Position numbers and translations under genes: made by a program. 64,000 bases of DNA from a virus, in IMG/VR virus record IMGVR_UViG_3300017917_002938, positions 1 to 64,000 of that record; one strand, written 5' to 3'. Every line of letters starts with the position of its first letter. Position 1 is the stretch's first letter. Below are positions 1 to 22,323 of this stretch, piece after piece. Under the pieces are notes generated by a model. That model did no database searches. It was given only the letters and a program-made list of their open reading frames with translations, and was not told the origin of the DNA.

Positions 1-3000
1 GATGCAAAAGTAGGTGATGCAGGATTGTCATAATTTGAGTTAGAAATAAACACGTTAGCAATAGTAACGGAGTTGTTAACCACGTGTTTTGCTAGAACGG
101 TAGGTGTAATTGAAAAATCAAGTGTACCAATAAATCCGTTGTTATTAGCTGCCGTAGCATTAGGAGCCCCTAAGAGCAGACCATTCAGAGTTGTAAACAA
201 TGTTGATGTAGTACCGGCTACAATATTTACAGGAACACCGTCCATTAACACAACAATTGTTGCGTATGGGTTATTAGGGTTGCAAGATACAATTATTTCG
301 TGTTCAAACTCGTCTCCTAGATCAACAACAATAGGAGGTTTAAAATCAGAGAAAATGTTATAGGTTGAATTGTTGTTGGAAATATAGAGTGACATCTGCT
401 TGTTTGCAGCAGTATAATTATAGCCAAGAAGCAAAGATATTCCGGTAGCGCCATATGCTAGGAATCTAGCAGTCTGATCTTTATTTCTATCATTGATGCG
501 GAATCTTGCTCTAAATGAGAATGGTCTTCCAAGAACGTTTGATGTAAACGCAAAAGGCATATAAGCAGTAGCATTCCAAGAATTAAAATGGAAGCGCTTC
601 TGGTAGTAATTTGGAGTACTATCAGCAGTAGGATATACTGATAGTGGGAATCCAACAATATCATTAATTTGAGAGTTTGATTCAAACAGTTGGCTGGCAT
701 AACCAGCAGCACCAGCGGCAGCAGCTAATGTAATGATATTATCTCTAAACTTCCAAGGTGGATTAACAGTAGAAAGTATAGTACCTGATGATTCAGTATT
801 ACTGAACCATTCGCCATAACCGGCGTGATGAATATTAGGAACGTAGATAGTTAAATCACCGGAATCTGCAGATTTAAACCATACGTTTGCAATACCACCC
901 TCAGTAGAGATAACATGGTAAGAGTTGGCAGTATATGGATCTACCTTATAAGGTACTGCGAATGTTCCAGATCCTGATCTTGCTGAACGACGACCGGCAT
1001 GCCTTACGTAAGTAGCAGTAGCATCTGTTGGAGCGGTTCCCTCAAAATAATATTGGAATGGCTTACTATGTTTAATTACAAGAAAACCAAAAGTATTAAA
1101 TACGGGTAAAAAGAATGAATTAGGAACAGACGTAATTGTTCTTGGGTTTTGTACTATAGGTAAATGTTTGACTGATAGTAAGTCAACCCCAGGGTCAGTA
1201 TTACCTTTAGCCGAAACAACTAGGTTAGCAGAACCTGCTACAGACAAGTAGAACAATCTAGACGATCCTGAATTAGGTCTACCAAAGTTAGTTGGGGTAA
1301 TAACAAACGAGGATGCTGCAGTACCAGTTCCAGAAACAATAGTTGCAACTGTGTTAGGGAATGGATTACTCTTGACTAGTGCAGGAGTTGTATAGTCAGC
1401 AAATTGACCGTTTGCAAGTTGGGCGGCGTATGTAAATCCAAACTGAGAAATATCTACAATGTACGCATTACTATTAGCGTCGTTAGTCTGTACGTGTAAC
1501 TGCGTAAACTGTGTATTGGTTGATTCACCAACTGCGTCAGTCGCACTATCTTTTGTATAAGATGCTTCAATGATACCAGCATAGTTCGAAAAGGTATACT
1601 GATTATTGGTACTAGTAAAGCTGCCTGATTGTTGGAATAGAGTTGTAAGGGTTCCAAAACCAGATGTATAAGGGTTATTAAATATACCGTACCCAGTCAG
1701 GCGGTCTCTAGTGTCCACTAATACTACATTAGCATCTGGTGTGTGATCATATACTGGCTCATCTTCTGTAAAGTAATATGCTGAACCAGAGCCTGAACCT
1801 AACATGAAATATTTTCTAAACCAATGCACTCCCCACTTATCAGCAGTGATAGGCTTGGCTATGTTAGCGGATACAGTATCACTATTAATTACCGGTAGTG
1901 AGTTTTGAAACGCATAATCCACACCATTGTAGTTAGCGGCTACCCCAATAGAACCTGGAAAAACACCTTCAGGTGGATAACTGATGGTGTTAGTAGTAAT
2001 GACAGAGTATCCTAAATCTACACGCGCGTCTTGACCGTATAAACCCCCAGCATTGAAAGCTCCTGCAGGTCCAGTAGCACCTGTACTACCTGTTGATCCT
2101 GTAGAGCCTTGAGCACCTTTTTGACCTTTTGTGCCTCCTCTGTAAATACTTACTGTTGTATTATTAGCAGTATCAAGGTTGCCGTTGTTTGCTTGAGTAG
2201 CAGAGAATGTAGTATAGTTTACACCAGCTGACGTAACAACAGTGAATGTACCCGGGTTAGAATACGAAGCATAGGTAGTTCCGTTTGCGTATACAAACAA
2301 TGTAGCACCGTCGTTTACGACACTAGAAACGTAAGTGTTTTCTCCTGATGAAGAAGAGTTAGAATAGAATAAGACGTTAGCTCCGTCATAATCTATCATG
2401 TTTGCATATTGAGGAGGGGCGGCTGTAGCAGTAACTACTTCGTCCAAATACCATTTCTGAGTTTGGGCTGTAGAAGTACCAAAAGCTGACCAAGCTTGAT
2501 ATAGAAGAATAAAGTTAGTATTTCCTGATGAAGGAACTACCTTACCAGATATTTCAGTATTAGACCAGGCGTTTGCTGTAAGATTTAAATACCCCAGTAA
2601 TGAAAAAGTTGAGGAGTTTTGAAAATAAACTGCAACCGGATACACGTTTGTCCATCCAGTGTTGCCCGCAGCAGTAACTGTAATTTTTAAAAGATTATTA
2701 GATGATAATATCGAAGAATTAACGTTTGCACTATTAATATAGCGATAAAAGTAATAGCTACCAAAGCCTGCTGATACTACACCGTTTGAAAATCCTATGT
2801 AAGTACCATCTGACCCGGTAGGGGCCGTGATTTGAGTATTTGTGTATAAGCCAGAAGTGTTAGATAGTTTCCATACTGATCCGTTAGCACCTGTAGTAGC
2901 GGTGTCAAAATCATCTGATAAACTTGATAGATTAGCAAAAGTAGCATTAGCAATTGCATTGGCTACGTTTACTACACTTAAAAAATCAGTTCTAAAAGTT

Positions 3001-3305
3001 CTAGATAGTTCACCTATTTGACCGGCTGCGCCTGTATCTCCTTTTGCACCAGTAGCGCCAGTAGCGCCAGTAGAACCAGTAGAACCAACTTCACCTTTGT
3101 CTCCAGTAGCACCTTTATCTCCAGCAACCCCTTTATCACCGGGCGCACCTTTATCACCGGTTACACCAGTCGAGCCAGTGTTACCAGTAGGTCCGGTATT
3201 ACCAGTAGGTCCTACATCACCCTTGGTGCCAACTTCACCTTTTTGGCCTTTATCGCCTTTAGGTATATTATTTTGAATTAGATCTGTTAAATTAATTGTA
3301 GTCAT
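1..3305 (-). CDS. Collagen-containing tail fibre/virion protein, runs off the window at position 1 (absent from the ORF track)
   Basis: ATG at 3305, 3 nt after the stop of the 1661-aa gene. Translates [35 protein letters not shown]... Collagen runs at about 3020-3260 and 2060-2135. The same frame is open at positions 3-29 (..DNPASPTFA). Confidence 0.85.
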
Positions 3306-22100: not shown

Positions 22101-22323
22101 CGTTGGAAATTGCAACGTTACCTTTAGAGACAACTAAGCCACCATTAGCAACCGTTAATGTATTTGCTACATTAATCTTTGCATTGGCCTCAATATTGCC
22201 TTCGACGTTGAGATTCTTACCTCCGGTGATATTAACGTTGCCGGAGATAGTGGTGGTATTACCAACAGACAATGTGTTGGCAATTACTGCACCGTGCTTA
22301 ATTCTAAAATCTTGTGTAGACAT
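16180..22323 (-). CDS. Giant tail fibre (2047 aa) with interrupted collagen segments
   Basis: N-terminus [16 protein letters not shown] runs at about 21325-21475, 20735-20835 and 20575-20655. Long beta-rich distal region. Confidence 0.8.
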   Translation of the reverse strand: MSTQDFRIKHGAVIANTLSVGNTTTISGNVNITGGKNLNVEGNIEANAKINVANTLTVANGGLVVSKGNVAISNGSLTVDKDLVISGNLTVTGVTSFQGTQTLQVGTNEIVLNSQLTGGDPEPVTDSSIIVNRGSAANVSLFYDETDNAWKFSNDGTLVFPFQAFTGLTYQFSANTNTVADVTDGTFRLNNSDLSLVTEIGIDPKEYGGSSVSTFINSWDDSNSSTLGYVTLRSAKSHTKFAIYSLTSISTATTGVLRLTVNYVNGTTLFDANELVYVEFLRTGDKGQKGEKGEVGQKGDKGEIGDKGDKGDKGEVGQKGEKGEIGFKGEKGERFSNALFTDANNTLEFSSSDASANVYVTGVKGQKGQKGEISGITYTFDADTSESASNPGIAQLLFSNSTIASVNAIVIRNLDAGGVNNFNYFSAFNSIGNSTVKGILTVVNYANTAQTAQFSIANVVTGSQSTNFKLNVTNIATNFTGPFEEGAQVVISATGAGTKGDVGEKGQKGDKGDKGDKGEVGSKGQKGELVSNATYTDANNTIRFNNSDGSSFVVTGVKGQKGAQGAQGSTGFTGQTGQKGENGGGGARLSIASDNYTYWNSGYGNVEPSYKSSWLVDQLYGVPAGNTYARSAIGKRRYWAGGYIAPMGDNPGILADGFMANTTIPLDKTGMFWYKKYYALAFANSQYLPNLTQDEPLIDYTPTTYNPDHKFNDYESTAFAITDRLTTFQPYTNFGYGLYSVGGQNTIDTINAVLVSKNFIGASSVSQTVVSGNLDPGAYIIEFIHRKSGNTWTSSQHTTDKITNIFFTKSDGTAVSTTDTKWSLVSGVGAAIAATNQFQIIGDPASAKIGYRSSYSYNNIKLLYPQRSIALNGNRSLDETIAYTYQSTNSNTYIYSNNSGTPDVSSSGHYDFIVGYGRTQGIRPGILTGAGTATGTNAITFTPTFIQSATNEVATAETDLNMMSTAQIYVSTNSAIKMSATLASNGYVVNDGQYSNDFIGYIIHKVNYDYLNNKFRPYNFVGGYSSANSGPSIARGLSGRTVIRIKPGVAASIHLVSNTVTVTDATSTWVPYAAHRATVTGSGTLAAPWIVSTQREGGAYFVLSGTGHYTIATDTNFVSGGELNYYTPDVLGYESSGSLSNYNNHWLVHDTLSYLSANQQAGVTAGYYNAYSQYLPILLDGAVTGTDMVRYSYASSIRSNQYYGKNGINGGTSSQGGVYLTSTYAGAFHHEAQTSYLGGTDVGGGSIRPWTVKVNFTLSDYQKEAAHNIFNMGICDANQSWNGGGISVRLLADRTIQVRIFTNTTTTPAYTVVIPTIADLAEHRNYSQLDPNSDDNQLGIDNTLVISYNPYVDGNKLSVVYNDVLVYEDAAAIIAPPPYNGVWIGKSSVLAATTDANQGFIGFCSVEILPIDIVKRTPSKQFDNVIISGASNHVYNDAFCNNVVYTHLAATSVGVTGELTGNAIFMKVFRAENPAASATMGFYGAAIGMFVTSQDNVIPRGSIVYDVDTDAVPNITFIGNVVSGCSVVYVVNSAADALSNNYSISTFTNGYYTITSSVSGSIPGNTMVYLSTNNNKYNSVELLSYFTDGTGSPVTVTATGTSATGTITLTKLSSMTIWNPLGFQSTANAVNEVLDVTAVVSNTAASLGVAFGPLTAASATNAFTAKGMVANGVVYLEDTIETRRLMKNIRPGNRIYGTAAPFSTAGNMERAFVSTGRDKYTYVRDYQFIYDIPSQLGLTVPAGWCANVTDPANTRFAPYTNATGYYSAIAIYTSFTNTAFTNTTAFNGTANQFQFSLGTAIDIAHDSAASSTNFVRLTYRPEVIATAARATDNYNYNYLYNELRNHWGIYSKQLFSMGYGSSTPYYYYSTDQRPASLGAQSSYKGYYIRPTNSSSDVSYGYGTVLGELFIGGPNKHVSQFRPTPVGLVFDSGMFKHTGTSAAALSATNLSNTTARAWNYYLPLALYDVRVIDYGAAANGTPNFIGGNTSLGSGRSSIVYSGGGGQTAVGAGVPMGSQLTVTGSGLQITGLVAGRIYRVIATPITTGF

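Follow-up and report, generated by a model that had tools for sequence, protein, structure and literature searches.

Glycosylation of collagen hydroxylysine (Hyl) is a modification for which published descriptions were found only for animals and giant viruses. Mimivirus L230, a protein of 895 amino acids (aa), has a GLT25D1-like N-terminus and a PLOD1-like C-terminus; it hydroxylates lysines of viral collagen and adds glucose, not galactose (PMC9614988). A second mimivirus protein, R699, may favour glucosyl-Hyl (PMC12279948). Prokaryotic collagen-like proteins are, according to a review, mostly without hydroxylysine glycosylation (PMC8968730), and phage genes for glycosyltransferases of family 25 (GT25) or 2-oxoglutarate (2OG) oxygenases are usually read as modifiers of lipopolysaccharide (LPS) or DNA (PMC7029224, PMC12801897). 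No description of a phage enzyme for collagen lysine was found in the literature searched, subscription papers being mostly outside it. The subject here is a 656-aa open reading frame at 11021-12991, on the minus strand of IMG/VR virus record IMGVR_UViG_3300017917_002938, of which positions 1 to 64,000 (the window) were analysed. Its product joins a GT25 domain, a PLOD-type glycosyltransferase (GT) and a lysyl hydroxylase (LH)-type 2OG-Fe(II) domain in one chain. It probably hydroxylates and glycosylates the phage's own collagen-like fibres, an activity to which homology, fold, catalytic residues and gene linkage point.

The three-domain open reading frame described in an earlier note on this DNA was borne out by Pfam, by translation and by its minus-strand orientation (a plus-strand reading of 11021-12991 has 48 stops), and all the motifs quoted there are present in the translation. 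Pfam places Glyco_transf_25 at aa 2-172 (1e-25), GT_PLOD at 239-456 (1e-59) and 2OG-FeII_Oxy_3 at 567-647 (6e-9). Sequence, fold and residues define three domains, all on the minus strand: a GT25 resembling the C-lobe of COLGALT1 (aa 1-232; 12296-12991), a GT-A domain of the LH3/R699 type (aa 239-456; 11624-12277) and an LH-type 2OG-Fe(II) oxygenase (aa 481-656; 11024-11551). By sequence, the first matches the catalytic lobe of COLGALT1 at 2e-17, as against 0.02 for bacterial GT25; the second matches LH3 at 4.5e-38 and R699 at 7e-28; and the third matches LH3 at 1e-13, L230 at 1.5e-7 and prolyl hydroxylases at 0.03. Folds were compared on an AlphaFold model of the 656-aa protein (predicted local distance difference test score, pLDDT, 91; predicted template modelling score, pTM, 0.53), in which the packing of the domains is uncertain because of the pTM value. 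Domain 1 superimposes on COLGALT1 (9evj) with Z 27.5 and a root-mean-square deviation (rmsd) of 2.0 over 225 aa, bacterial GT25 reaching Z 16.7; domain 2 on LH3 (6wfv) with Z 32.3, rmsd 1.6 over 222 aa, and on R699 with Z 31.1; domain 3 on L230 with Z 22.1, rmsd 2.1 over 173 aa, the best prolyl 4-hydroxylase (P4H) giving Z 17.2. The best solved match is COLGALT1 for the first domain, LH3/R699 for the second and LH3/L230 for the third, and the COLGALT/PLOD identity proposed earlier held above LPS GT25s and prolyl hydroxylases in both comparisons.

The suspected absence of the PLOD accessory domain was likewise found: the GT ends at about residue 464 and the LH starts at about 467, with no accessory domain between them and 403 of the 700 LH3 residues aligned. 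The N-terminal non-catalytic GT-A lobe of COLGALT is also absent, aa 1-238 of the model aligning to COLGALT1 340-580.

Names already attached to this gene suggest another role, an auxiliary gene altering host LPS or phage DNA. The source calls the product a 'GR25 family glycosyltransferase involved in LPS biosynthesis', its PHROG class is a 2OG-Fe(II) auxiliary gene, and published accounts of such genes favour modification of the O-chain or of DNA (PMC7029224, PMC12801897). This role is nevertheless very improbable: LPS-type GT25 falls far below COLGALT1 (0.02 vs 2e-17; Z 16.7 vs 27.5), the 50 best fold matches of the model include neither a DNA-modifying oxygenase nor a DNA-modifying glucosyltransferase, and the gene is located in the late structural module. 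LPS and DNA modification were rejected, bacterial beta-1,4-galactosyltransferases not being the best match and no DNA modifier ranking among those 50 folds.

Active-site residues, as defined in PMC12987934, PMC13382579, PMC12279948 and PMC5802723, were scored in 113 full-length relatives. In the GT25 domain, R11, R14, D93, D94, K121, Y142, D170, E171 and S227 correspond to COLGALT1 R351, R354, D436, D437, K470, Y494, D522, E523 and S569, so that K470, Y494 and E523 of the acceptor cleft are retained (residue roles: PMC12987934). Domain 2 keeps W277, K290, D311, D314, E340, W344, N364, D388-D389-Q390, H449 and N451, and has the glycoloop Trp, DxxD, Trp145, poly-Asp, His253 and Asn255 of PLOD GTs. 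Domain 3 has an LH-type double-stranded beta-helix and keeps the iron triad H581/D583/H628, together with Y570 (= Tyr656). Across the relatives, the residues for metal, donor and base in both GTs, and those of the iron triad, are invariant or nearly so.

The presumed substrates lie in three minus-strand fibre genes around the enzyme. Directly downstream, with a gap of 30 nt after the enzyme stop, is the gene of an 897-aa fibre protein (8297-10990), with collagen runs at 10643-10840, 10088-10294 and 9794-9829; 20 of its 49 triplets have Lys at Y. A 2047-aa fibre protein (16180-22323) has runs at 21322-21474, 21205-21240, 20737-20835 and 20560-20658, where Lys fills Y in 26 of 43 triplets. The third gene (3-3305), open at the contig edge, encodes at least 1101 aa of a protein with collagen runs at 3006-3257 and 2055-2135; Lys is at Y in 10 of its 37 triplets. 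The products of 8297-10990 and 16180-22323 have PHROG tail-fibre matches. The three genes total 129 Gly-X-Y triplets, arranged in runs of 9-28 (plus two runs of 4); Lys occupies Y in 56 triplets and X in none, and Pro occupies X in 4 and Y in 3, so the Pro-poor, X-Lys-Gly character ascribed earlier to these fibres stands (7 Pro in 129 triplets). KGD/KGE salt-bridge triplets contain 38 of the 56 collagen lysines. The collagen runs are short segments within large fibre proteins, not long collagen rods.

Outside the window, a fourth Lys-rich collagen gene is present at genome 87172-88266 on the minus strand (L533:17173-18267). It encodes 364 aa with 13 Lys at Y in 27 triplets, and the product, although distant from the enzyme, is likely a further substrate. 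At the far end of the genome (162422-163543) there is an open 373-aa Ser/Thr/Asn/Gly-rich frame that may be the C-terminus of the contig-cut fibre gene 3-3305; the contig ends show neither an in-frame join nor a shared repeat between the two.

Profile searches gave 299 related proteins and 479 matching stretches in viral contigs. Cultured carriers are the Synechococcus phages S-CAM9, S-PRM1 and S-8S53/55/56 and Roseobacter phage CRP-6, a 45-kb phage of another phage group; their copies are annotated as hypothetical or as 2OG oxygenase. In all four cultured phages inspected, CRP-6 included, a Lys-rich collagen run lies 0.7-2.4 kb upstream of the enzyme. Collagen is found within 10 kb at 64 of the 73 loci that have at least 5 kb of upstream sequence and, after clustering at 60% identity, in 19 of 22 informative clusters, 17 of which have at least three Lys at Y. 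The S-CAM9-type collagens are Pro-rich and have additional 2OG genes alongside.

Among 48 records chosen for a GQK/GEK motif in their collagen, 21 had the full fusion and 28 some related domain; the full fusion was present in none of 46 chosen by a GPQ motif and in one of 45 chosen by a Lys-free GAT/GPT motif, a contrast that is inflated by shared cassette ancestry and whose p-values overstate independence. The single GAT/GPT carrier has the highest share of Lys at Y of its set (24%). Two further records of this set, with 5-9% Lys, carry GT25 genes, and neither GT25 nor the fusion occurs in the 40 with less than 5% Lys at Y. The presence of the enzyme thus tracks Lys at Y of the collagen, and the co-occurrence with Lys-bearing collagen that the earlier note predicted was recovered (19 of 22 clusters; none of 40 Lys-poor records with the fusion).

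Other architectures of the family were also encountered (L535:10820-13057, L534:5630-7837, P0123, P0121). The variants include a GT4-like domain joined to GT25 and LH, whose neighbour is a collagen carrying 74 lysines at Y; a GT25 and PLOD GT protein that has no LH; the three domains preceded by a fused methyltransferase; and a form with two GT25 domains. At L536:7923-16915, a 795-aa GT25 + LH protein is located beside two long collagens of about 280-310 triplets with 4 Lys at Y each, a case of few target lysines.

Several observations weigh against the proposed action on fibre collagen. The fusion is absent from 50 records with Lys-rich GPKGDK collagen, 17 of them at least 90% complete; the Lys-at-Y rule is one-way, Lys-rich collagen phages without the enzyme being common, and Lys richness alone was rejected as evidence. 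The GQK/GEK motif was picked from the enzyme family's own collagens, and the records are redundant fragments. A large-phage clade (L137, L143-145, L153, L156, L161) has no collagen within 10 kb and keeps all catalytic residues. At the position of COLGALT1 W495 (YW motif) the phage protein has Leu143, and the W495A mutant of COLGALT1 is inactive (PMC12987934, PMC12003778); the family has Trp in 60 and Leu in 38 of 113, and 53 are without Trp. In the hydroxylase there are two conservative changes: K640 replaces the 2OG-binding Arg (R729/R887), with Lys in 113/113 relatives, and V626 replaces the dimer Leu (L715/L873), with Val in 111/113. Finally, mimivirus particles contain hydroxylysine, but its glucosylation was not found (PMC9614988). 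A further departure is I229 in place of COLGALT1 T571 in the lid loop (Ile in 89, Thr in 14 of 113). Giant-virus forms retain the 2OG-binding Arg and mostly the dimer Leu too. Leu for W495 is a lineage feature, and all four departures are lineage traits, not decay.

The substitution for W495 lends some weight to a partial pathway, in which fibre Lys is hydroxylated and only one GT is active, or the Leu143 GT25 is weak or has another acceptor, leaving Hyl or mono-glycosyl-Hyl. Loss of COLGALT1 activity in W495A (PMC12987934), the one sugar reported for L230 with none seen on particles (PMC9614988) and the existence of two-domain forms, in which one GT or the hydroxylase is missing, are in keeping with such an outcome. 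It is unlikely all the same, as the DxD/DD, base and donor residues of both GTs are kept in 113/113 relatives, the Leu types included, which argues for selection on both.

The collagen-free clade bears on a different question, that of the substrate: a non-collagen virion protein or a host protein might be modified, or proline hydroxylated, with the collagen linkage a product of cassette history. Streptomyces and Kaistia have GT + LH copies in their chromosomes without Lys-rich collagen in the vicinity, which also fits this idea. The collagen linkage is, on the other hand, seen across unrelated phage types. As to proline, Lys is found at the 2OG-binding site of prolyl 4-hydroxylases, as it is in domain 3. 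Lysyl hydroxylases are nonetheless matched over prolyl ones (1e-13 vs 0.03; Z 22.1 vs 17.2), and the window collagen has 3 Pro vs 56 Lys at Y. A substrate or residue of this other kind is improbable; prolyl hydroxylation itself was rejected, P4H not being the best match (E 0.03, Z 17.2) and 129 triplets having 3 Pro at Y. Modification of the phage's own fibres remains the most likely role, as the earlier note had proposed and as sequence comparison suggests, because all three domains match collagen enzymes first, the sites are conserved, 56 of 56 collagen lysines are at Y and the gene is linked to collagen. Further support is the activity of L230 on viral collagen, which it hydroxylates and glucosylates (PMC9614988).

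In the large-phage clade (for example at L143:9977-11938), Gly-rich fibre-like genes and another 2OG gene stand beside the intact fusion. The chromosomal PLOD GT + LH copies are at L168:10001-11263 (Streptomyces kronopolitis) and L169:10001-11260 (Kaistia terrae), and neither neighbourhood holds an intact fused GT25 or a Lys-rich collagen.

In the proposed mechanism, a late-expressed cytoplasmic enzyme would act on unfolded fibre chains, ahead of trimer folding or while it takes place. Lys of X-Lys-Gly would first be converted, with O2, to 5-hydroxylysine by the C-terminal Fe(II)/2-oxoglutarate domain. The N-terminal GT25 would then put a first hexose from a uridine diphosphate (UDP)-sugar on the new hydroxyl, with D170 as base, and the middle PLOD-type domain would put a second hexose, probably glucose, on position 2 of the first. 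The predicted product is a disaccharide on hydroxylysine, either glucosyl-galactose (Glc-Gal, the animal type) or Glc-Glc (suggested for mimivirus). Donor sugars are not fixed by homology, because the GT25 of L230 uses glucose. The galactose-then-glucose order given in the earlier note was therefore not supported (PMC9614988, PMC12279948), R699 perhaps preferring glucosyl-Hyl and Leu143 replacing Trp495; if the enzyme does modify its own fibres, Glc-Gal has slightly less than an even chance of being the product.

Candidate purposes would be protease shielding, solubility, fibre stiffness and charge masking; shielding or solubility is as plausible as stabilisation. The proposal that glycosylation stabilises helices in place of hydroxyproline proved weak: KGD/KGE triplets, abundant in viral collagens, stabilise triple helices via salt bridges (PMC11923368) and hold 38 of the 56 Lys, Lys-rich phages lacking the enzyme are common, and the collagen of S-CAM9 is Pro-rich.

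The record is a T4-like phage genome of 163.5 kb (93% complete) with a gp23 match (E 7e-149). Every gene in window 1-46068 is on the minus strand, and baseplate wedge genes lie upstream of the fibre/enzyme block in identical direction. Between the fibre genes and the enzyme is a GH19 endolysin gene (13414-14049, minus strand), and a 144-aa coiled-coil gene (12963-13397, minus strand) overlaps the enzyme start by 29 nt. The enzyme gene belongs to the late structural module. A match to the T4-type late promoter consensus (22349-22356, minus strand) stands 26 nt ahead of the 2047-aa gene, a suggestive position; the motif shows no enrichment over chance in the window.

Elsewhere in the window, a permuted two-piece transfer-messenger RNA (tmRNA) was called by ARAGORN at 56754-57123 (minus strand); its tag, ANDERFALAA, may be a pointer to the host group. 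A tRNA array follows at 59604-63903. A 225-aa 2OG-FeII_Oxy_3 gene within the tRNA region (58987-59664, minus strand) is the genome's sole other one. At genome 72559-75968 on the minus strand (L533:2560-5969), a sugar-nucleotide cluster encodes a cytidylyltransferase, an NAD-dependent epimerase/dehydratase, a GT1-group glycosyltransferase and a GHMP kinase, and could serve donor supply or have a role in other glycans.

The fusion had been taken for a phage novelty, a claim that gave way when the profile search also returned many proteins of 830-990 aa with the order GT25 - PLOD GT - accessory - LH, found on contigs of giant-virus metagenome-assembled genomes (MAGs). In one MAG protein of 895 aa, residues 4-273 match COLGALT1 and residues 239-894 match LH3 over its full length; it also hits the L230 hydroxylase (4e-53), and over aa 1-463 it has 31% identity with the phage protein. 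Megavirus K7YEL3, an 889-aa procollagen-lysine dioxygenase, aligns along the entire phage model. A 77-aa segment of L230 used as query gave giant-virus MAG relatives of about 50% identity, and from L230-like relatives (L531, L532) we infer a middle GT domain in L230 as well. The three-activity fusion thus has a predicted giant-virus counterpart of about 900 aa, and the phage enzyme is a compact form of the L230-type fusion minus the non-catalytic accessory domain.

Trees were quick unrooted IQ-TREE runs with groups labelled by length, architecture or contig type, context being checked for some rows. In the LH-domain tree a long branch separates the compact phage forms from the rest (Shimodaira-Hasegawa-like approximate likelihood ratio, SH-aLRT, 99), and in the PLOD GT tree they are outside the giant-virus-type and animal-like group (98). 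Recent capture from animals was rejected on this placement; the unrooted trees do not give direction. It is possible, though doubtful, that tailed phages hold an old, independent and minimal collagen-lysine pathway, in which a cytoplasmic chain of 650 aa makes true Glc-Gal-hydroxylysine on fibres. Should that be true, an 'animal' modification could have a prokaryotic-virus history, the phage form being outside the animal and giant-virus group, and fully glycosylated collagen might be made in E. coli.

If the enzyme is active, this chemistry extends to many aquatic bacteriophages as a new kind of phage virion glycosylation, and hundreds of genes now named LPS glycosyltransferases or generic 2OG oxygenases would be re-annotated. 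Cultured carriers (S-PRM1, S-CAM9, S-8S55, CRP-6) make the proposal directly testable. Bacteria could not be used to produce human collagen in glycosylated form (PMC9546862), a gap that a single enzyme working in the bacterial cytoplasm could fill. The precedent of L230 lessens the surprise.

As with L230 and L230-like proteins (PDB 6ax6, 9nev; PMC9614988, PMC5802723), the phage enzyme is a single viral chain that begins with a GLT25D1-like GT and ends with an LH, the domain order being common to both, and both systems have Pro-poor viral collagen and Lys-at-Y collagen genes in the same genome. It differs in having no accessory domain (about 240 aa shorter), a shorter capping loop and a hydroxylase in which Lys and Val replace Arg and Leu, and in being encoded by tailed bacteriophages, adjoining its presumed substrates. 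With the human COLGALT1/GLT25D1 and LH3/PLOD3 complex (PDB 8zgc, 9evj, 6fxr; PMC11897130, PMC12987934, PMC12003778) it shares three catalytic domains, active-site residues and the X-Lys-Gly motif. Animals, however, use two proteins of the endoplasmic reticulum, each with a non-catalytic GT-A domain, whereas the phage has the three catalytic domains in one chain without a signal peptide, and human Trp495 and Thr571 are replaced by Leu and Ile. Mimivirus R699 (PDB 9dyt; PMC9546862, PMC12279948) has the same GT domain (7e-28, Z 31, rmsd 1.6), and its acceptor residues have counterparts of the same kind in the phage protein (Lys, Glu, Trp, Asn, Asp-Asp-Gln, His, Asn), but R699 consists of GT and accessory domain only. 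In mycobacteriophages, according to an account of Freeman et al. 2023 given in PMC12619734, phage GTs also decorate phage structural proteins; as described in that account, the glycans are on C-termini of capsid and tail-tube proteins, without lysine hydroxylation or collagen.

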